Origin: a virus
Length of the DNA: 64,000 nt
IMG/VR virus record: IMGVR_UViG_3300033407_000001
Span: 7,824-71,823 of that record
Direction: 5' to 3' (one strand)
Shown here: positions 1 to 52,362 of the stretch, piece by piece
Position numbering within the stretch: position 1 is the stretch's first letter
Layout of the letters: every line of letters begins with the position of its first letter
Position numbers and translations under genes: made by a program
Notes under the pieces: model-generated
Database searches by the model: none
Told to the model about the DNA's origin: nothing
What the model saw: only the letters and a program-made list of their open reading frames with translations

Positions 1-8
1 CCCATGAC

Positions 9-740
9 GTCTCGTTATCAAAGCCAACGAGCAAGCTATTTAAAGATGCGCTCGCATTCTGCGGAGGTTAGGTAGTCTCGTCATCAAAGCCAAACGAGCA
101 GGCTTTTAGGATTGGCAGGAGTGATGGCCAAATGCAGACAGCTGCGGTCTCGTTATTAAAGCCAACGAGCAAGCTTTTAAGATCAAATATCTCTGTGGAA
201 ATGTCGTAGAGTGTAGGGTCTCGTTATAAAAGCCGACGAGCAAGCTGTTTAAGCGAGGACCCTTGAGCAAGGCGATGTTGAGCGCATTGTCTCGTTATAA
301 AAGCCAACGAGCAAGCTGTTTAAGTCGTACTCAGGTAGGCACCGTCAACCTGCCAGTAGAGGTCTCGTTATCGAAGCCAACGAGCAAGCTATTAAGTTGG
401 TAGCGTTGCCTGGCTCGGACCGGACCGCAGGACGTCTCGTCATCAAAGCCAAACGAGCAAGCTGTTTAAAGGTGATGTCGTTGATAGCGCAAGGCTTTCG
501 ACTGGCCGTCTCGTTATTTAAGCCAACGAGCAAGCTATTTAAGATCGCTCTTCACCAGTGTGGAGTCTCGTCCTTTAAGCCGACGAGCAAGCTGTTCAAG
601 GAGCACGGGGGCTTCTGGCTCGTTGCCAACTACACCGGTCTCGTTCTTTAAGCCAACGAGCAAGCTGTTCAAGGTGGCGAGTGATGCTGATCAAAGCCAA
701 ACTTGTCTCGTCATCAAAGCCGACGAGCAAGCTATTCAAG
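9..740 (-). CRISPR. Type V CRISPR array, 11 degenerate 35-38 bp repeats and 10 spacers (21-37 bp); probably continues beyond the left edge
   Basis: Repeats start at 9, 75, 147, 218, 289, 362, 434, 508, 565, 638, 705. Plus-strand consensus GTCTCGTYATCAAAGCCRACGAGCAAGCTRTTYAAG; minus strand ends ...GAGAC with hairpin CTCGTY-9nt-RACGAG. Lies 41 bp downstream of the Cas12m-like gene on the same strand. Confidence 0.97.
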
Positions 741-781: not shown

Positions 782-2803
782 CTAATTTCGAGAGGTGGCT
801 TTTCGGACTCTTTTAGCAGGTTCTGCTGGTCCGATTGTTTCCTGGAAAATCCAATCATATTTAGTATTTACAGCCAATGATGGGATGCCTGACTTCCTCG
901 GGTCACCTGGGGTCTCGAAATCGGGTGGGGTTCCTCCGCCGCTGCGGCAGAGGTTGATAGCAGCATTCGCATCCTGGTCCCAGAAGGCACCGCAATCCGA
1001 GCACCAATGATTGATGGATAGCGCATGATCCCAATCGTTAATCACTCCACATTGATGGCACATAGCAGTTATGTGCTTAGAGTCCAGCGCTTCGAATATC
1101 GCGCCATGGTTTCCGCAGGCGTTATTGATGAGGATCCGCATTTTCCCAGGAGATGCGAGTGAGGCTTGTTTTCTGACGATTTTGCTGTTCAGCTCACCGT
1201 CGAAATTTTCCTTGGTCTTGAATTTTGCGTAATTTGTATTATCGACTACAACCTTGCCATATTCACGGGCAAGGAAGGCAGCAAATTTTCGATATGCGTC
1301 TTTCTTGCGTAGCTGGCAGCGGTACTCGATGCCGCGTGTCCTATTATATGCAGCCTTGTCCAGACTTCGCCAGGTTTCCAGTTCGCCAAACATGGCTTCA
1401 TCGCCATCGAAGCGATTTTTTCTCCAATGAAGAACGAATGACGCTAGCTTACGTTGAGATTCCCAGTTTCTAATCATACTGATGCCGCGCCATCCGGTTA
1501 GCCACTGCGGAAGGCTGTCTTGCTCTTTTTTATGACGAGACAGCCAGACCGCAAAAGACTCTTTAATCTGATTGAGTGCCAGGTCTCGCGCCGCCTGCTT
1601 TATGCACATCGTTTCCATCTTTTTGCTGTATTCACCCTCAAGGATGACTTCGCCGTGGCGACCATCGTCTCCGTACCAGTAGGCTGCGCGGATGTTATTG
1701 TCACCGACTCTTCTCCAGCCCAGATTCACTGCGACGACCCCAGGGCGCTGAACTTCTTTTGCCTTATCCTTGCTTAGAGTCAGTTGCAGGTAAAATCGGT
1801 AGGTGGTGCCTGATCTTTTCTGCACAATCTTGGCCCATTTGATTTTCACATCATCTGGGATACTCCTATGCATTGTAATGGGAAATTCCACCCATATTGG
1901 CTTCATGCGATTGGTTGGCGAAGATCCAACACGTATGCGCACCGTTGTTCGACAGTTTTTGCGCCGGAAGGCCCGGTCTGGGGTGCCATCCGGTCTATTC
2001 TTGGTCCAAGGATTGTCCTCCGGGGTCGAGAACGGTTTTGTGATCTGAAGGAATTTGCTACCACCCCATGCCTGCTCGGCGGTGATACCTTTCTGCAGTT
2101 GGACTGAGACAATACCGTCACCAGACCAATGTTTGAATTTTGGATCTTTCCTTCTCCCAGGAGCATATTGGGCCGCCCTAGCGGCTCTTTCGTTTGCCCC
2201 GTAGGTGCCCCAGCATATCTTATGCTGCTCCCTGAACTCATTGCGTATCCTTTTGATTTCCGCAGCGAGTTTCTTATTGTTGGCCGTTATCTTATCTTCA
2301 ATCTCTGGGCGCTGTTTGATTTCCTCGCGTATATCCTTTCGCTCAGAAGTAGCAACCTTCTTCTTAGCCGTAAGCTTTTTCTTGAGATCTTTTGCTCCCT
2401 TATTGGTCTTGTCGGCCTTGAGGATGGCCTTGAGTGATTTGATTTCTTCGGATAGCTCGTCGATCGTTGAATTCAACTCCTCCATGCGGAGGCTAGGGGC
2501 TTCACCTATGATTTCCCTGTATAGCTTCGTTGAGGCTCGATAGGCCTCAGTGAGCTTGTTCCGATGGTCGTGCCCCAGGCGCAGTTGATAGATGAGAGTG
2601 TGACCATTGCACAGGTCACCATCGGTGTCCTGATTACATTTTGGACAGTCGCTCTCCGGTCCCGCGAATGTCGGTCTCCCAAGGCGGAATTCAATAGTAT
2701 TTTCGACTGTTTTATGGCTTTCGATTTTGCAAATCGAACAGACCTGAATCAGTTCTTTTTTTGGATCTGGATGGTCTCCCCACCTGTGTTGATGTGTAGG
2801 CAT
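782..2803 (-). CDS. cas12m: Type V-M CRISPR effector, Cas12m-like (TnpB-derived; RuvC predicted inactive)
   Basis: RuvC-I VAVNLGWR (Asp replaced by Asn), RuvC-II VVVDNT (Asp for Glu), Zn finger CHQC...CSDC, RuvC-III DQDANAAINL, WGTY and GDGIVSVQLQ motifs, long Lys/Glu coiled-coil REC insertion. These match MmCas12m motifs as recalled (ALHLGWR, VLVDDT, GSGTIAVQLQ). Abuts the array. Confidence 0.85.
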   Translation of the reverse strand: MPTHQHRWGDHPDPKKELIQVCSICKIESHKTVENTIEFRLGRPTFAGPESDCPKCNQDTDGDLCNGHTLIYQLRLGHDHRNKLTEAYRASTKLYREIIGEAPSLRMEELNSTIDELSEEIKSLKAILKADKTNKGAKDLKKKLTAKKKVATSERKDIREEIKQRPEIEDKITANNKKLAAEIKRIRNEFREQHKICWGTYGANERAARAAQYAPGRRKDPKFKHWSGDGIVSVQLQKGITAEQAWGGSKFLQITKPFSTPEDNPWTKNRPDGTPDRAFRRKNCRTTVRIRVGSSPTNRMKPIWVEFPITMHRSIPDDVKIKWAKIVQKRSGTTYRFYLQLTLSKDKAKEVQRPGVVAVNLGWRRVGDNNIRAAYWYGDDGRHGEVILEGEYSKKMETMCIKQAARDLALNQIKESFAVWLSRHKKEQDSLPQWLTGWRGISMIRNWESQRKLASFVLHWRKNRFDGDEAMFGELETWRSLDKAAYNRTRGIEYRCQLRKKDAYRKFAAFLAREYGKVVVDNTNYAKFKTKENFDGELNSKIVRKQASLASPGKMRILINNACGNHGAIFEALDSKHITAMCHQCGVINDWDHALSINHWCSDCGAFWDQDANAAINLCRSGGGTPPDFETPGDPRKSGIPSLAVNTKYDWIFQETIGPAEPAKRVRKATSRN

Positions 2804-3498: not shown

Positions 3499-3954
3499 TC
3501 AAGACTGATGCATCGTCGTCTGGAGCAGGTCCAGGGTGATTCCTAGCTCCTCGGCTACAGAGAAGATTTTATCGTCTCGGTAGAATTCAGCGTAAACAAT
3601 GCGCTTCATTCCAGCGTTGGCAATCATCTTGAAGCATGGCCAGCAGGGGCTTGCTGTGGTGTAAAGCATCGCGCTATCAATAGAGGTGCCATTCTTGGCA
3701 GCCTGGATGATGGCATTTTGCTCTGCGTGGATGGTCGCCACACAGTGGTTGTCCTCCATCATGCAGCCGACGCCAGGGTCATCGCAGTGAGGCAAGCCTT
3801 TGATCGATCCATTGTAGCCAGTGGCTAGGATGGACTTGTCGCGGACGATCACAGCACCGACATGCTTACGCGGGCATGTGGCGCGAGTGGCCACGTCTGT
3901 GGCTATGTTCATAAAATAATGATCCCAGGATGCTCTTTCCATGGCCGGGACCAT
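3499..3954 (-). CDS. dCMP deaminase (ComEB/DCTD family)
   Basis: HAEQNA and SPCWPC zinc-binding motifs; RATCPRKHVGAVIV...ATGYNG. Confidence 0.93.
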   Translation of the reverse strand: MVPAMERASWDHYFMNIATDVATRATCPRKHVGAVIVRDKSILATGYNGSIKGLPHCDDPGVGCMMEDNHCVATIHAEQNAIIQAAKNGTSIDSAMLYTTASPCWPCFKMIANAGMKRIVYAEFYRDDKIFSVAEELGITLDLLQTTMHQS

Positions 3955-3975
3955 GACTCAAGGTTTGCCTATTGT

Positions 3976-5040
3976 CTATAGGGCGCCGCCAGCGGATATC
4001 TTTGATTGCTGCTCCAGCCAAAGCTTCTTAGCCCATTCACCCCTGGTGGTGAGTTCATAATGCATAGGATCGACAAAATCGATTGATTCCCATTCTCCCA
4101 TGGCCCGCTTGAAGGCGTCTGTAGAGTTGATCGCCTGATCGTTCTGGTCATATCCAATGCCAAAGTCTCTCACCAAGTGTAGCCACTCCATCCGACCCCA
4201 GTTCATCCCACAGGAGAAGCCAACGGAGATGAAGGCGATGAATAGCTCCAGTGGCATGCTGTCTGGATACACCTCGAAGTATTGCTTGGAGAATGGGAGG
4301 ATCGTATGAATCGGTCCTCGATCAGCGATGTTAGGGGTGCAAGGTATCCATTTGATCTTACCGTTGATCTTCACCTTGCGTTGCCACTTGTGATGCTTGG
4401 AGACGCCACGATTCATCTCCATGTTCTGATCAAATGCAAAAGCCCATGAGTGATAGCTCAGTGGATTGGATTTGTTATGGCGGATGTGTCGAGGGGAATA
4501 GGCGCCAATTTTGGTCAGGTAGCTGAGGACTTTGTAGACTATGCCCATGATGGAAGAGGTTCGCGCCTCCAACTCCTCACAACGAGATAGACCCTCCCGG
4601 AAGTAGATGCCGGCCCGATTCTCCATATACAGACGAGGCCTGTCGTTGTTCCAATTGCCGGGCAGATTCTCGTGTACCTTCAGGTTGGCCTTCGGGAATT
4701 GCTTGTTGCCGGTGTCGTTTGATGGTCGTCCGTAGACGCCATAGACACTGAGTTCACCCTCCTTTGGGTAGCGGCGGGACGGAAGGGCATCCAGGGGGCC
4801 GTCAAATGGCCTGTAGAGGACCTCCATCATCAGATCCCATCTCAGCTTCCATTCGGATGGCTCCGGCTCAGAGGGCTCCACAGGAGGCGCAGGAGTGACC
4901 ACCTCCCCAGAAGCCTCGGTTGGTGGGCTTTCCACGGGAACCTTTTCAGGAAGGACCGGTATGTCCTCTTCGGTTGGCTTCTGCGGGTTCTCGATAGCAC
5001 CGAAGATCTTAAGTATCAGGTTCCATATGGCTGCGATCAT
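3976..5040 (-). CDS. M15-family Zn peptidase (endolysin-like) with Pro/Glu-rich N-terminal linker
   Basis: R...SYHSWAFAFD and DPMHYE motifs of M15 peptidases. Confidence 0.7.
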   Translation of the reverse strand: MIAAIWNLILKIFGAIENPQKPTEEDIPVLPEKVPVESPPTEASGEVVTPAPPVEPSEPEPSEWKLRWDLMMEVLYRPFDGPLDALPSRRYPKEGELSVYGVYGRPSNDTGNKQFPKANLKVHENLPGNWNNDRPRLYMENRAGIYFREGLSRCEELEARTSSIMGIVYKVLSYLTKIGAYSPRHIRHNKSNPLSYHSWAFAFDQNMEMNRGVSKHHKWQRKVKINGKIKWIPCTPNIADRGPIHTILPFSKQYFEVYPDSMPLELFIAFISVGFSCGMNWGRMEWLHLVRDFGIGYDQNDQAINSTDAFKRAMGEWESIDFVDPMHYELTTRGEWAKKLWLEQQSKISAGGAL

Positions 5041-5072: not shown

Positions 5073-5130
5073 TCTCATCGAAGCCTATGCCTAGGCTTTA
5101 CAGCGGCATAGGTGATGCCGCAACATGAGA
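5073..5130. ncRNA. Candidate structured RNA (three-way junction with alternative fold)
   Basis: Perfect stems TCTCAT/ATGAGA, AAGCCTA/TAGGCTT and GCGGCAT/ATGCCGC in an intergenic region; alternative helix CCTATGCC/GGCATAGG. Confidence 0.5.
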
Positions 5131-5254
5131 AGAAAATTAGCGCCGCAAAGGATTGCGTTGTAACCACCTCGTAAAGCCCGTAGATGATTGCAGCGGAGCA
5201 TATTTTCCAACCATTCGTGGTGGTTTTAGACGGCAAGGTCATGGTAACGTTCAA

Positions 5255-5290
5255 AGTGAAAAGCCTGCTTGATGGCTTAGAAATCAAGAC
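5255..5290 (+). CRISPR. Solitary variant CRISPR repeat (unit A)
   Basis: AGTGAAAAGCCTGCTTGATGGCTTAGAAATCAAGAC; last 31 nt identical to 33075-33105 (minus) and 23/31 identical to the array consensus with a compensated stem; extended -10 TGGTAACGT at 5242-5250. Confidence 0.7.
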
Positions 5291-5304
5291 CAACCCATAG
5301 TCCC

Positions 5305-5838
5305 TCACTTGGGGCTAATCATCATTGTCATGACGCGGTTTTCATACCGAGCAGCCCTCTCTAGTTTCGCTATGTCTACCAGCTCAACCATGATCTTGTC
5401 CAATATGGCCTTGCCAACCTCCGGGTGAGCGTTCTCACGTCCCCGAAATCTAACCTCAAATTGGACTTTGTTCCCTTCTTCTAGGAACTTGCGGGCATGC
5501 TTGGATTTGAAGGCAATATCGTGAACGTCAGTCTTAGGTCTGAGCTTAATCTGCTTCAGCTCAACCTTGGTCTGGTTCTTTTTGGCAACGTTTTTGCGCT
5601 TTTTCTCTGCATATAAGAATTTACCGTAGTCTATGATCTTGCAGACAGGCGGCCTAACCTCTGGAGATATCTCAACTAGATCCATCTCCATCTCTTCAGC
5701 CTTAGCTAGCGCTTCGGCGATGGGCATGATCCCCTGTTGCGTACCATCCGCAAGAACAACACGTACAGAGGACACTCTGATGCTTTTGTTCATGCGTGGA
5801 CCCATTGGCTTCTTGGGTCGCCTCTCGTTACCTCTCAT
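5305..5838 (-). CDS. infC: Translation initiation factor IF-3
   Basis: MNKSIR..VRVV, DLVEISP...PPVCKIIDYGKFLY, KQIKLRPKTDVHD, FLEEGNKV..EVRFRGRE. Confidence 0.97.
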   Translation of the reverse strand: MRGNERRPKKPMGPRMNKSIRVSSVRVVLADGTQQGIMPIAEALAKAEEMEMDLVEISPEVRPPVCKIIDYGKFLYAEKKRKNVAKKNQTKVELKQIKLRPKTDVHDIAFKSKHARKFLEEGNKVQFEVRFRGRENAHPEVGKAILDKIMVELVDIAKLERAARYENRVMTMMISPK

Positions 5839-6076: not shown

Positions 6077-6262
6077 TTATTCCGGCTTGTAGTCAAATGC
6101 CATGTCTATGCATTTGTCGCGCAGGGTGTCAAAATCTTTTTTGAACTCATCGTTTGTTCCTTCGAAGGGCACGTCTCTGTCTCGCAGGGAGTCGATTAGC
6201 TTCCAAACTAACCAGCGTTCCCGCTTAGTAATTTTCGCTATCCGTTTCTTCTGTTGCATCAT
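6077..6262 (-). CDS. Hypothetical protein
   Basis: Tiles between neighbours on the coding strand. Confidence 0.5.
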   Translation of the reverse strand: MMQQKKRIAKITKRERWLVWKLIDSLRDRDVPFEGTNDEFKKDFDTLRDKCIDMAFDYKPE

Positions 6263-8018
6263 TTTTCACTGGTATGAACTGAAGCACCTTGGCTACGTCC
6301 GGTTCCTTAACTTCGAGTCCACGCTGCTTCATGAATGCTTCGGCGAGTTTCTTGGAGTTGTGCCCCTCGGTATTGCTGCGTGCGATGAGGCTTGCATTGG
6401 GATCTCTGATGCCTTGCATTTGAGATCTCTTCACGCCTAGGACGTCGGCAATGATCGGATCACTGCCAAATTCCGAGAGTAGGTAATAGGCCATGACTGG
6501 GTCTGGTTGACCATCCCTGTGGGCTCGCCCTGTACATTGATCGTGGACCCCTGGCGACCAGTCTAGCTCACCGAACACAACGGTTCTGCAGCAGTACTGC
6601 AGTCCATCCAATCCGGCGCCGGCACGGAGGGACATCATCAGAATTTTGCTTTCGCCCTCAACAAACCTTCGCTTGGATTCGATCTTCTGTGCCGTACTTT
6701 GCCTGCCCGTGTACATGGCCGGGTTGAGGTCTTTCAGCTTTGCCTGCCATATTCCATAAACCTCATGGTGCCATCCATATAGAAGAACGGATTCACCAGA
6801 TTCTACGAGTATTCTTACAAAGTCTGCAACATACGGCGCCTTCGCAAGGCCGGTGGCCTGCCTGAGTACGTTCGATAGCTGCTCTGCAGCCATCATCTTC
6901 ATGCCCTTCTTGGCTTCGCCTTGGGCAAGGATTATCTGGGCCAGCTCAGCCGCTGAGTCCTCAATTTTACTGAGTTCTTCAGTGTTGGCTTCAATGGCGT
7001 GGGGAATCTTAGTGAGGGGCTCAAGCTCACGGCCAACCTCGCTTCTAGTCCGCCTGATCATCAATCCGATTTCCCTGAGATAAGATCCAAAACCCTTTGG
7101 ATCTGTTATCGATGGTTTATCTCCAGATGATCCACTGCACCATTCTCTGAGAAATTCTGCGCGAGTCCCTAGTACGTCAGGAGCAATCGATGACATGACG
7201 TTAAAGAATTCTCCACCGTAGTTGTAAATCGGAGTCGCGCTCAATCCGACGCGAGTCCTGGAATGGCCGGATACGTGCGCCGCTGCAATAGTCTTCTGTG
7301 ACTCAGATCTGCGCAATTCTTGGCACTCATCGAAGATAACACTCTTGGTCACACCAGCGAGAGTCTCTGCCCAACCACGAAGTTTGTGGTAGTTGATGAT
7401 GATAACGTCAGGGAAGAGGACCTTTTTCTCTTCTTTGTTTTTACCCCTGCCGACGGTTACTTTGGTCATGTCGTACGGAGAACTCTTCTTTACGATATGA
7501 GTACGAAGTCCAGGAAGGAACTTGTTTACTTCACTCTCCCATTGCTTAGGAAGGTGAGTCAGCGTGACGACGAGCGCTGGTAAATTAGACGGGTCAGTGA
7601 AAATACACATGCCGGTGATCGTCTTGCCAAGTCCAAGATCATCAGCAACGAGAAGTCTGCCAGTTCGCATCGCAAGGGCGGCTGCTACCTTCTGGTATTC
7701 TCTCGGCGGTAAAGCCATTTCCATCTCTGGCGGCTCGTATCCATCGGCTAGGATATCTGCAATGGCTGAGTCCTTAGCTCTCTGTTCATCGGCTTTTTCC
7801 GTCAGAACCAGCTGATCATTGGCCTCGATCTCCATTGGATACCGAGACATGAACCACTCAAGCTCCCTTGAGTTGTCAGTGGTCGCAGATAGCCATTGTT
7901 CGCCATACTGGCCTTTGTCTATCTGTTTGAAGATTCTCTTAAGTCGGAGAGCCACTTGTGGCTCGCATTGTATGACCCAGGTATCTTTGACTAGTGCTAC
8001 TTTTCCGTACGTTCTCAA
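6225..8018 (-). CDS. SNF2/DEAD-like SF2 helicase
   Basis: ADDLGLGKT, FDECQELR, LSATPIYN, MSLRAGAGLDGLQ, DQCTGRAHRDGQ. Confidence 0.93.
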   Translation of the reverse strand: MRTYGKVALVKDTWVIQCEPQVALRLKRIFKQIDKGQYGEQWLSATTDNSRELEWFMSRYPMEIEANDQLVLTEKADEQRAKDSAIADILADGYEPPEMEMALPPREYQKVAAALAMRTGRLLVADDLGLGKTITGMCIFTDPSNLPALVVTLTHLPKQWESEVNKFLPGLRTHIVKKSSPYDMTKVTVGRGKNKEEKKVLFPDVIIINYHKLRGWAETLAGVTKSVIFDECQELRRSESQKTIAAAHVSGHSRTRVGLSATPIYNYGGEFFNVMSSIAPDVLGTRAEFLREWCSGSSGDKPSITDPKGFGSYLREIGLMIRRTRSEVGRELEPLTKIPHAIEANTEELSKIEDSAAELAQIILAQGEAKKGMKMMAAEQLSNVLRQATGLAKAPYVADFVRILVESGESVLLYGWHHEVYGIWQAKLKDLNPAMYTGRQSTAQKIESKRRFVEGESKILMMSLRAGAGLDGLQYCCRTVVFGELDWSPGVHDQCTGRAHRDGQPDPVMAYYLLSEFGSDPIIADVLGVKRSQMQGIRDPNASLIARSNTEGHNSKKLAEAFMKQRGLEVKEPDVAKVLQFIPVKNDATEETDSENY

Positions 8019-8416
8019 AGAAGGCTGCCAACTAAACTGTGAATAAGCACGGGTTTGCCGTTGATCATCTGAGGTATTTGATTAAGTCTCGCCTTGGCGC
8101 TCACAATCAAGATCCCTCTGATGGATTCATGCTGAACATATCTATGCACTTGGCGAGTAAGAGCGCTTAGTGAGTGCTTGATCTTGACCTCGACACCAAT
8201 CATGGTCTCCGGCCAGTAGAAATCTATCCGATCTTCCTTGGACAGAATACATTCAGATTGGAAGGGGGATTCCAGAGTCTCAAATACTTCCTTGATTCCG
8301 ACTTGAAGATCAGCCTCACAGGTGTAATTGAAGTTGTACTGCTTGAGCAGGCTATCAAGCTCTTTGAGCCACGTTTCGGCTTTAATACGAGGCTCAAGTT
8401 TGACAATATCACTCAC
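8015..8416 (-). CDS. Putative PD-(D/E)XK nuclease-fold protein
   Basis: RIDFY...GVEVK...RQVHRY pattern; coupled to the helicase gene. Confidence 0.5.
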   Translation of the reverse strand: MSDIVKLEPRIKAETWLKELDSLLKQYNFNYTCEADLQVGIKEVFETLESPFQSECILSKEDRIDFYWPETMIGVEVKIKHSLSALTRQVHRYVQHESIRGILIVSAKARLNQIPQMINGKPVLIHSLVGSLL

Positions 8417-8783
8417 TATCGGCTTCGGTTTGTCCTGAGCGGAGTCTTGCGCCTTCCAGCTCTGCTGGTGTCACTCCTGTGCCGATGCCCAGGGTATGTT
8501 CGACTGGTGACATGGCCACGAGGACTTGGATGCTCATCTCTTCGATCGCCTTGATGTTGTCATCTAGCAGTTTGATGTATGACCTCATGTCGGCTACCGG
8601 CCAATCCCTGGCCGTGATGTTATTGGCCATGCAGAGTTGAACCCTGGCAAATGCGGCCAGAGCCTTCTCCTTGTGCTGCGCAATAGATTGGTTTAGCGCC
8701 TGAATCTTCTTGAGATTCTGAGTTCCCTCCGGGTGTCTAACGCCGAGGAAAGACTTAGCTACGTCGGTGTATTTCTCGTCCAT
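8409..8783 (-). CDS. Hypothetical protein
   Basis: Tiling ORF downstream of a TTGACAATT box (about 8810-8818). Confidence 0.6.
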   Translation of the reverse strand: MDEKYTDVAKSFLGVRHPEGTQNLKKIQALNQSIAQHKEKALAAFARVQLCMANNITARDWPVADMRSYIKLLDDNIKAIEEMSIQVLVAMSPVEHTLGIGTGVTPAELEGARLRSGQTEADSE

Positions 8784-33019: not shown

Positions 33020-33184
33020 CAATTGTCAAGCTGGCCTAGGGTAGGTCGAGGGCGGAGTTGATTTTCTCTTCCTTGTCTTGATTTCTAAGCCATCAAGCAG
33101 GCTTTGCAGCTATTTATTGCTGAATGCTGCAATTGTCAAGCTGGCCTAGAGTAGGTCGATGGCGAAGTTAATTCGCTCTTCTTT
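33020..33184. repeat. Imperfect 55-bp direct repeat (33020-33074 and 33130-33184) bracketing solitary repeat unit B
   Basis: 48/55 identity at a 110-bp offset; each copy contains TTGACAATT; copy 2 encodes the recombinase C-terminus. Confidence 0.9.
33075..33110 (-). CRISPR. Solitary variant CRISPR repeat (unit B)
   Basis: GCTGCAAAGCCTGCTTGATGGCTTAGAAATCAAGAC; 33/36 identical to unit A; TTGACA (33134-33139)-N17-TAAATA directly upstream. Confidence 0.75.
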
Positions 33185-33718
33185 GAAACTCAGGTATTGG
33201 GATGTGGAGGTAATCCACTTGTGCCCAAGTGCTCCTTGGAGCTGCTTCAGATCACCATCAAGGAGGTCATGCATTCGATCGGCAAAGGTCTTGCGCATGC
33301 AGTGAGTCCCGAGAGTTCCGGTCATACCGATAGATTTAAATGCCTTATCGAAGATCCGCCACACCTGAACTCGTGATATCCTCTTGTGGGCGGTTGAGCA
33401 GAATAGAGGAGTCTCCCCCACACACCCTCCTATCTCCTCGATCCAAGCAGCAAGGGCAACCTTAGCCTTGGAGTTCAGCTTGACCGTCCTCCCCTCCCCC
33501 TTGCCTTTCATGGCAGACCGTCTTACAGAGACGGTATCGACAATTCGATCGAACTGAAATACATCAGACACATTGAGGGATAGAAGCTCACTGATGCGAA
33601 ATCCAGTCATCAAGCCGACCGTGAATAGGCAGGCATTCCTAACTCCATTGCTTCCGCAGTGGAGAGTCGCAGTAACCAATTCCGATTCCTGCTTTGTCAA
33701 TGGCCTGCATCCCTTCAT
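33146..33718 (-). CDS. Small tyrosine recombinase (catalytic domain only)
   Basis: RNACLF...TGFRISELLSL, HCMRKTF, LGHKWITSTSQY (R-H-R-H-Y catalytic set); class-B promoter. Confidence 0.92.
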   Translation of the reverse strand: MKGCRPLTKQESELVTATLHCGSNGVRNACLFTVGLMTGFRISELLSLNVSDVFQFDRIVDTVSVRRSAMKGKGEGRTVKLNSKAKVALAAWIEEIGGCVGETPLFCSTAHKRISRVQVWRIFDKAFKSIGMTGTLGTHCMRKTFADRMHDLLDGDLKQLQGALGHKWITSTSQYLSFKEERINFAIDLL

Positions 33719-45057: not shown

Positions 45058-45093
45058 GTCTCGTAATCAAAGCCAACGAGCAAGCTTGTTCAG
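45058..45093 (-). CRISPR. Solitary CRISPR repeat of the array type (unit C)
   Basis: Plus strand GTCTCGTAATCAAAGCCAACGAGCAAGCTTGTTCAG, 28/29 identical to array repeat 1; TTGACA (45136-45141)-N17-TGTAGT upstream; no second repeat nearby. Confidence 0.88.
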
Positions 45094-49396: not shown

Positions 49397-49786
49397 ATGA
49401 GCAACTCACTGAAACCAAAAATTGAAATGGTCCCAATGATTCCCTTCACCATCACCGAGAAGATGGCCGAGGCCGTGAACAAGCACTTCGAGTATGGGAC
49501 TGGACCGGCGCGACTGATAATGATTCGCAGCGGGCTTATCCAGGAGATTCGTATCCCAGGGATGCGGATGACTTCCAAGGCTCCCAAGTGTTCGACCATT
49601 CTCCGTAAGGAGTTCGGGATGAGTGGTAAGCCGGTCAAGCTGTTGCACCAGTTCGAGATTCTCCTTCAGATGACGGAAGTTCTCGATGGATGGGATTCGA
49701 CTACCATCGTTGAGAATGGGACCCTGCGAATCCTCACCGGGGAAGAGTCCGACGAGCTGAAGGCTCAGCACAAGGGCGTGGCATAA
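49397..49786 (+). CDS. Hypothetical protein
   Basis: Class-B promoter; terminator at 49789. Confidence 0.78.
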   Translation: MSNSLKPKIEMVPMIPFTITEKMAEAVNKHFEYGTGPARLIMIRSGLIQEIRIPGMRMTSKAPKCSTILRKEFGMSGKPVKLLHQFEILLQMTEVLDGWDSTTIVENGTLRILTGEESDELKAQHKGVA

Positions 49787-52092: not shown

Positions 52093-52362
52093 GGGTAATG
52101 TTGCTCATTATAAATGTCGGGGGAGGGTGGTTCCTCCCCCGGCGCCCCGCTTAAGCAATGGAAAACTCTAAGAGTTTTCTTTGCCGCGCAAGCGCTTGCG
52201 CTGGTACGATGTGATTCCACCGGGGCGGATAACACGCACCCATATTGATCGGCCTGCTCGCTGGCTTCGATGGCGAGACTGCCTACCTATAGAACACCTG
52301 AGCCAGAGTGAAGTTTCTGCGTTTTCGCTGAAATTCTGCGAGAGCTGAAGTGTTTATGTACC

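Follow-up and report, generated by a model that had tools for sequence, protein, structure and literature searches.

A solitary Cas12m-type repeat in a small insertion beside infC of a huge soil phage: a candidate guide cassette against the uninterrupted allele

The stretch of DNA analysed here (the window, 64,000 nucleotides) covers bases 7824-71823 of a 199.6-kb IMG/VR phage record (IMGVR_UViG_3300033407_000001), rated 92% complete and derived from what is described as a huge soil phage. At the junction between infC, the gene of translation initiation factor IF3, and a small membrane-protein gene the phage carries a single full-length CRISPR repeat of type V-M, referred to below as unit A, and a gene for the corresponding effector Cas12m lies nearby together with its repeat array. 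We tentatively propose, at a probability of about 40%, that unit A is a stand-alone gene for a CRISPR RNA (crRNA) that would serve the phage's own Cas12m and target sibling phages at their uninterrupted allele; the carrier itself would be immune. The features of the locus and of the Cas12m system are as follows.

5213..5295, plus strand: insertion of 83 nt (leader and repeat), counted with one copy of CCAACC
5213..5255, plus strand: cassette leader of 43 nt, containing TGGTAACGT (5242-5250)
5256..5290, plus strand: unit A, a full-length variant V-M repeat with its 31-nt core at 5260-5290
5291..5314, plus strand: putative guide of unit A, native DNA directly after the repeat
5205..5207, plus strand: TTC at the left edge of the insertion, resembling a protospacer adjacent motif (PAM)
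5305..5838, minus strand: infC, encoding IF3 (N- and C-terminal domains), whose stop TGA (5307-5305) falls within the putative guide
5075..5308, minus strand: open frame running through the insertion into a conserved small transmembrane open reading frame (ORF)
782..2803, minus strand: cas12m homologue of 673 aa with RuvC residues N-D-D, the presumed partner of unit A
8..739, minus strand: the part of a 35-repeat array that lies inside the window, directly downstream of cas12m; the array extends to genome position 6122

A variant repeat and its Cas12m

Unit A is composed of a 5' flank, one strand of a 6-bp stem (CTTGAT), a 9-nt loop (GGCTTAGAA), the second strand of the stem (ATCAAG) and a terminal AC, and its homology to the array repeats spans 35 nt (5256-5290). 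An earlier note on this DNA had reported that the 31-nt core recurs unchanged in a second unit 28 kb away; the 31-mer was indeed found exactly at 5260-5290 on the plus strand and at 33075-33105 on the minus strand (unit B), with a match in none of 100 shuffles. A third copy of the variant repeat, with one mismatch located in the loop, lies outside the window at genome positions 126481-126508 (minus strand). The three copies agree at 31/31 and 30/31 positions although their flanks are unrelated, and the array repeats are heterogeneous. Compared with the array consensus the stem has changed from CTCGTT/AACGAG to CTTGAT/ATCAAG, with pairs 3 and 5 altered on both sides, and both the loop start GGCTT and the terminal G...AC are retained, so that the compensatory swaps in two base pairs described earlier are borne out. 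The nearest other repeat is 4.5 kb away and no regularly spaced neighbours are present, hence unit A is not a member of an array.

To place unit A among related repeats, we used a gapless alignment of 63 repeats from three phages, namely the array and five solo units of this phage, the array of the related contig L057, and the array and dispersed units of G001 (IMGVR_UViG_3300042191_000299, a complete 94.5-kb phage with a Cas12m 31% identical). Nine columns of the alignment are invariant and unit A retains all nine. The 6-bp helix is paired in 98% of cases across the 63 repeats, a count biased toward pairing by the collection filter, which demanded at least 5/6 stem pairs, and five of its six pairs show two-sided changes. 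A second helix of 4 bp, which was not filtered on, forms a pseudoknot in which AGCY of the 5' flank pairs with RGCU at the loop start; its pair 10-19 occurs in the states U-G, C-G and U-A and is unpaired in none of the 63. Furthermore, G12, A34 and C35 are invariant in 63/63 repeats and present in unit A. In the Cas12m2 handle a G:A(-2) pair and C(-1) are read base-specifically by the WED domain (PMC10442227), and we equate the three invariant bases with these, matched by position and not by formal alignment. Rfam gave no match at unit A or unit B, and thermodynamic folding z-scores were not significant; ViennaRNA cannot represent the pseudoknot. The comparison supports the view that unit A is a Cas12m-type repeat of conserved structure, as opposed to a hairpin that arose by chance. 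The earlier interpretation is thus partly supported, by the 9/9 invariant bases, both helices and a cognate Cas12m in the record, and on structural grounds the variant stem is expected to be acceptable to a Cas12m.

The best PDB match of the cas12m product was "CRISPR-associated DNA-binding protein Cas12m" (E = 9e-56), with GoCas12m and Cas12m2 next in rank, and the gene is the sole Cas12/TnpB-like gene in the 199.6-kb record. HMMER alignments place N (VAVNLGWR), D (VVVDNT) and D (WDQDANAA) at the RuvC positions. Cas12m of the N-D-D class binds DNA without cleavage (Bigelyte et al.). Because the RuvC residues are N-D-D, binding without cutting is expected here as well, and by analogy the phage Cas12m is probably a non-cutting DNA binder. 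The whole array occupies genome positions 6122-8562 and contains 35 repeats that are unusually heterogeneous in the loop tail, the closing pair and the 5' end; its spacers are mostly about 35 nt long (range 15-40 nt), and no adaptation genes (cas1/cas2) were seen near the array. To our knowledge, a phage-encoded Cas12m was first reported in a September 2026 preprint. That preprint describes one array and no dispersed units.

The difference between the stem of unit A and that of the phage's own array bears on a further proposal of the earlier note, namely that the solitary repeat mimics a host type V repeat as an RNA anti-CRISPR (Racr); in the case of a host V-M system it would soak up the host effector. 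A solitary repeat in a viral genome is the hallmark of such RNAs (PMC10651486). The searches of sequence collections did not bear this out. Among 185,579 species genomes the variant stem gave 10 single matches in unrelated taxa, none with the GCCTG flank and none in an array, and there was one unrelated match in viral contigs and none in metagenome contigs; these negatives cover the three collections, the host itself being known only through a hint at Myxococcota. That hint comes from IF3, whose named homologues among those listed belong only to Kofleriaceae and Nannocystaceae (61-68% identity), suggesting a myxobacterial host; the phage record also holds about 40 tRNA genes and a tmRNA. Moreover, the phage encodes its own matching Cas12m. 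In G001, where solo units and mini-arrays of 2-3 repeats are dispersed at 840, 3921-4023, 30658, 45202 and 49582-49681, the dispersed stems CGCGCC/GGCGCG and CGCACC/GGTGCG also differ compensatorily from the main array (CGCATC/GGTGCG), therefore a variant stem need not imply a foreign effector. This weakens the Racr reading, which we consider quite improbable.

The insertion, its flanks and a second cassette

For comparison we used the DNA around close IF3 homologues (75-86% identity) on eight contigs (L053-L060), which represent six distinct versions. These relatives keep the synteny around infC, with the helicase or a small ORF upstream where the contig reaches that far and, directly downstream, the small membrane ORF. 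A dCMP deaminase farther downstream is retained as well on the longer contigs, and L057 also has Cas12m and an array. Five of the six versions have the Shine-Dalgarno sequence and ATG of the small ORF within a few bases of the infC stop, and at this junction the insertion is missing in all eight syntenic loci. The 83 extra nucleotides, bounded by the 6-bp direct repeat CCAACC (5207-5212 and 5290-5295), are present in this phage and in two other assemblies of the same phage, and the cassette was found nowhere else; to judge from these alignments, unit A sits in a lineage-specific insertion. The same phage is also assembled as a 286,833-bp ENA contig (L061, ERZ27256991), and SRR10376053 likewise comes from a sample that contains it. 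The last base of the repeat coincides with the right edge of the insertion. The 43-nt leader has no second copy in the genome or in the relatives' loci, is unlike the regions upstream of the other units, and the insert carries no nuclease or transposase ORF. In the neighbouring DNA, the SNF2 helicase upstream of infC in L056 (6829-9789) has 986 aa with an intein-splicing domain, and the copy in the window (6225-8018) has 597 aa without the intein domain.

The insertion also changes the start of the small ORF. The ancestral ATG (5298-5296) now opens a 4-codon frame ending in TGA, and candidate new starts on the minus strand are TTG at 5293-5291 and an in-frame ATG at 5243-5241 within the leader. 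A rescue of the small ORF by a new start in the insert is compatible with these positions and not statistically compelling, the unbroken frame through the insert being itself statistically unremarkable.

Since the guides of the array begin right after GAC, the putative guide of unit A is taken to start at 5291. It covers, in antisense direction, the stop of infC, the Shine-Dalgarno sequence and the start that the small ORF had ancestrally; the antisense orientation toward the infC stop had been noticed before and is confirmed by the position of the TGA within the sequence following the repeat. In the three closest relatives (L059, L060 and L056) CTTC directly precedes the sequence matching the guide, positions 1-9 are identical and 20/24 positions match. 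In the carrier, only 5 matching bases lie between the TTC at 5205-5207 and the start of the leader. TTC occurs at a frequency of 0.0186 in this genome, and its joint presence at the junctions of units A and B is expected at about 3.5e-4 (3.5e-3 for any TTN); we take TTC as a putative Cas12m-type PAM. As in viral mini-arrays, the guide matches relatives beside the putative PAM and does not match the carrier, the match being an imperfect one.

A second cassette with the same variant repeat lies inside a recombinase gene.

33075..33109, minus strand: unit B, the same variant repeat, inside the recombinase gene
33075-33185, minus strand: unit B cassette, with the 12 final recombinase codons in a recoded copy and the TTGACAATTG motif in addition to the repeat
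33074 to about 33045, minus strand: guide of unit B, the original 3' end of the recombinase gene

In minus-strand order, TTTC comes first and then a 56-nt segment with the 12 final codons of the recombinase, their stop and the TTGACAATTG motif. A spacing of 19 nt leads to the repeat, behind which a second copy of the 56-nt segment (88% identical) forms the guide. The guide translates to KEEKINSALDLP followed by a stop, in essence the C-terminal end of the nearest recombinase homologue (92% identical, ending in KEEKINSALDLL), and the working recombinase ORF ends in the recoded copy KEERINFAIDLL. Between the two 56-nt copies there are seven differences in the first 36 nt and none in the last 20, the pattern to be expected had the retained coding copy been displaced beyond the range of the guide. 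In the relative L063, which is without the cassette, CTTC is followed by a 21/24 match to this guide. We therefore count unit B as an independent second case of the same geometry of putative PAM, repeat and guide, in favour of the proposed function of unit A. The recombinase itself is a tyrosine recombinase of 190 aa consisting of the catalytic domain only (33146-33718, minus strand); it is widely conserved in the phage group (L063, L064), and the gene downstream of it varies between relatives.

A possible stand-alone guide RNA

The proposal that unit A is a stand-alone crRNA gene rests on the identity and structure of the repeat, the edges of the insertion, the TTC and first 9-10 nt shared by three relatives, and the geometry of unit B; the cognate Cas12m as the only such gene of the record and the dispersed compensated units of G001 add to it. 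A small cassette (43-nt leader plus 35-nt variant repeat) would have been inserted at the junction of infC and the small membrane-protein gene. With the end of the repeat falling precisely on the right edge of the insertion, transcription of the plus strand would yield a Cas12m handle with native phage sequence behind it as the guide. This RNA would be loaded into the phage's own N-D-D Cas12m, supplied in trans, which by analogy with characterised N-D-D, H-D-D and D-E-D Cas12m proteins would bind PAM-flanked DNA without cutting and block transcription. In a phage without the cassette, the complex could bind the TTC-adjacent match and silence the junction of infC and the small ORF together with the genes downstream. 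Such silencing or roadblock would act in a co-infecting sibling, possibly on an operon reaching from infC toward cas12m and the array. The carrier would be immune, since the cassette separates the TTC from the protospacer at unit A and the target copy is recoded at unit B. Going one step further, units A and B might be minimal selfish guide cassettes that occupy the boundary of PAM and protospacer and patch the genes that they interrupt, with a new start for the small ORF and a recoded C-terminus for the recombinase; this extension is doubtful.

Several observations weigh against a guide function of unit A. The three relatives that carry the match deviate from the guide at positions 10-11, and published PAMs of Cas12m include C-rich ones. 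None of the 35 array spacers yielded a protospacer in the relatives' loci, the phage's own genome or the phage database, and the 15 spacers of L057 yielded none either, only a 16-nt chance match. A degenerate pattern of TTC plus guide did not uncover a perfect empty allele in viral or metagenome contigs, the metagenome collection also having missed the known L059, and the Logan contigs of the source run break at the 31-mer, with none that skips the insert. Binding of the variant stem by the phage Cas12m is an assumption. On the expression side, a scan for consensus sigma-70-like promoters found no plus-strand site at unit A, and the motif TTGAYAATTG, found ahead of the array as well as of unit B and of the unit at 45058-45092, is missing there. 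Alone among the five units, unit A lies antisense to local transcription, and the only sequencing run containing the stretch is a DNA soil metagenome. The extended -10 element that the earlier note had placed upstream of the repeat fared accordingly: TGGTAACGT is present at 5242-5250 on the plus strand as described, and the promoter call is weak, with only 3/6 positions of the -10 hexamer matching. In addition, two further solo units of the window occupy replacements in poorly conserved spacers and not clean insertions.

52245-52279, plus strand: fourth solo unit, whose stem CTCGCT/GGCGAG is a third compensated form, immediately upstream of a conserved promoter/5' untranslated region motif
45058-45092, minus strand: array-type solo repeat in which one stem position is mispaired, preceded by a TTGACA-N17-TGTAGT motif

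At the position of the first of these the relative L065 (91%) has a terminator-like hairpin instead, and the TTGACA-N17-TGTAGT motif before the second is conserved in L067, which is without the unit. The flanks of the relatives at these sites (a T-run and TGTC) neither confirm nor refute the TTC, and the two units do not test the TTC rule, since they are replacements.

The strongest rival to the proposal is that unit A is a neutral relic, copied in by recombination or an unknown form of mobility and untranscribed on the plus strand, with a PAM-like flank that arose by accident. This would agree with the lack of a recognisable promoter, the antisense position relative to all neighbouring genes, the occurrence of the cassette in this phage only and the unremarkable open frame through the insert. 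However, it does not readily explain the near-identity of the three variant copies amid unrelated flanks and heterogeneous array repeats, the preservation of all invariant bases and both helices, the TTC at the junction of two independent cassettes, or the recoded target copy within unit B. We regard a relic as unlikely, if less so than the remaining alternatives.

The opposite strand offers another explanation, in which the insert acts as a terminator hairpin after infC, as an anti-repeat (sponge or RNase III site) for the crRNAs of unit B and the third copy, or in which the plus strand gives a pure antisense RNA to the junction. A terminator scan calls AAGCC...GGCTT with a T-rich tail at 5278-5261 (minus strand), and the insert alters the start of the small ORF. 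Furthermore, the earlier note had pointed out that read-through from infC would be complementary to unit B, and at the sequence level the minus strand does hold the exact 31-nt complement of that unit. The called hairpin, however, is the repeat's own pseudoknot helix, and the scan has a chance expectation of 0.7 calls per region. Moreover, characterised Cas12m works without a trans-activating crRNA (tracrRNA), and the geometry of PAM and protospacer is specific to the plus-strand reading. Such a function seems improbable to us.

Equally improbable is a regulatory crRNA-like RNA of the CreR/CreA/crlRNA kind, whose guide would pair with partial complementarity to a promoter in the host or in the part of the phage beyond the record. 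Cas12m silences transcription without cutting, which suits regulation, and regulatory guides on stand-alone repeats are widespread and occur in subtype V-A too. The ENA contig measures 286.8 kb against the 199.6 kb searched, so that about 87 kb beyond the record could hold more units or targets. Nevertheless, the best TTN-flanked site for the guide of unit A in the 199.6-kb record reaches 15/24, which is the chance level, and among the guides of all five solo units none found a self-target beyond chance there, with the exception of the adjacent recoded copy of unit B. In addition, unit A has as its guide simply the neighbouring sequence that the insertion exposed, as opposed to a spacer brought in from elsewhere.

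Some further elements of the phage are described here for completeness. The third variant copy (L003:1476-1535 and 1334-1371; genome about 126314-126515, minus strand) lies between tRNA mimics that are Y-RNA-like and circularly permuted, at a distance of 38 nt behind tRNA-Leu(taa). A helix of about 25 bp joins its last 13 nt and the first 12 guide nt to a partial copy of the unit that lies inverted 104 nt downstream, and in the next element a 5' hairpin resembles a reverse-complement unit with about 30 nt inserted in the loop. A TROVE domain, which would link to Ro60, was not found at threshold in the record. Between 47500 and 63970 more than 20 copies of a CTGAAATTC-N10-GCTGAGGTGTTTAC-N6-ATG motif stand directly before start codons on both strands; the CTGAAATTC/GCTGAGGTGTTTAC motif is phage-specific and often stands in divergent pairs, back to back. 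The intergenic DNA of the same region contains conserved GGAAAACTC-NNN-GAGTTTTCC hairpins as well as GCGCAAGCGCTTGCGC palindromes.

Comparison with known systems

At the level of the RNA, unit A resembles the handles of Cas12m2 and GoCas12m (PDB 8HHL/8HIO and 8PM4) in having a repeat-derived handle of about 30 nt in which a second stem accompanies the 6-bp pseudoknot helix, together with a G that pairs non-canonically with A(-2) and a base-read C(-1). The loop of the Cas12m2 handle has 8 nt compared with 9 nt in unit A, and the sequence is otherwise unrelated; unlike in these systems, unit A is phage-borne and the units are dispersed through the genome. The likeness to Racrs (Camara-Wilpert et al. 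2023, PMC10651486) is limited to the solitary CRISPR repeat in a phage genome, whereas the three collections searched gave no host-type array with the repeat of unit A, a cognate effector is encoded by the phage itself and the guide lies in a PAM-compatible context. CreA/CreR, crlRNA and the stand-alone repeats of subtype V-A are located within cas loci, and their pairing with cas or toxin promoters of the same genome is partial (Shmakov et al. 2023). Unit A shares with them a stand-alone diverged repeat with a guide and a proposed non-classical use of the effector, yet it has no such self-target, and no promoter match, in the 199.6 kb searched.

Mini-arrays and solitary repeat units carried by viruses, as outlined by Medvedeva et al. 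2019 and Faure et al. 2019, are used in interviral conflict. As in these, a repeat and guide are located in a viral genome away from adaptation genes, the guide matches close viruses, and the carrier is without a targetable site. Unit A differs from them in being a single repeat and not a repeat-spacer-repeat, in having the phage's own Cas12m and not the host machinery as its effector, and in using native flanking DNA instead of an imported spacer as its guide.

The order of elements at units A and B, namely PAM or target adjacent motif, element and guide-matching flank, is identical to that of TnpB and its omega-RNA in IS200/IS605 elements, where the RNA likewise recognises the empty site and the occupied site is immune. 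Moreover, the crRNA fold of Cas12m resembles the triplex-pseudoknot core of the TnpB RNA. In contrast to these elements, the 83-nt insertion has no transposase or nuclease gene of its own; the effector gene lies 2.5 kb away and also serves the 35-repeat array, its RuvC residues N-D-D let binding and not cutting be expected, and no mobility mechanism was identified. The same logic is found in homing endonuclease genes, here with a binding-only effector provided in trans.

If units A and B are indeed selfish cassettes, the disrupted site's own sequence becomes a guide against every genome with an intact site, which would be an RNA-guided counterpart of the marker exclusion by homing endonucleases between co-infecting phages and a living intermediate between the omega-RNA logic of TnpB and CRISPR arrays. 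Confirmation would mean that a non-cutting CRISPR effector drives competition, and perhaps gene spread, among sibling phages, and that new guides can arise without Cas1-Cas2, tying guide biogenesis mechanistically to the TnpB ancestry. In practical terms, single-repeat cassettes could provide a compact way of programming Cas12m silencing. The geometry of the insertion, in which a repeat placed between PAM and protospacer would create a guide against the ancestral allele and immunise the carrier, also offers a testable rationale for the solitary Cas12m repeats scattered in phages. Thus unit A, if it acts as proposed, would extend the biology of viral solitary repeats and mini-arrays by a TnpB-like geometry of guide capture.

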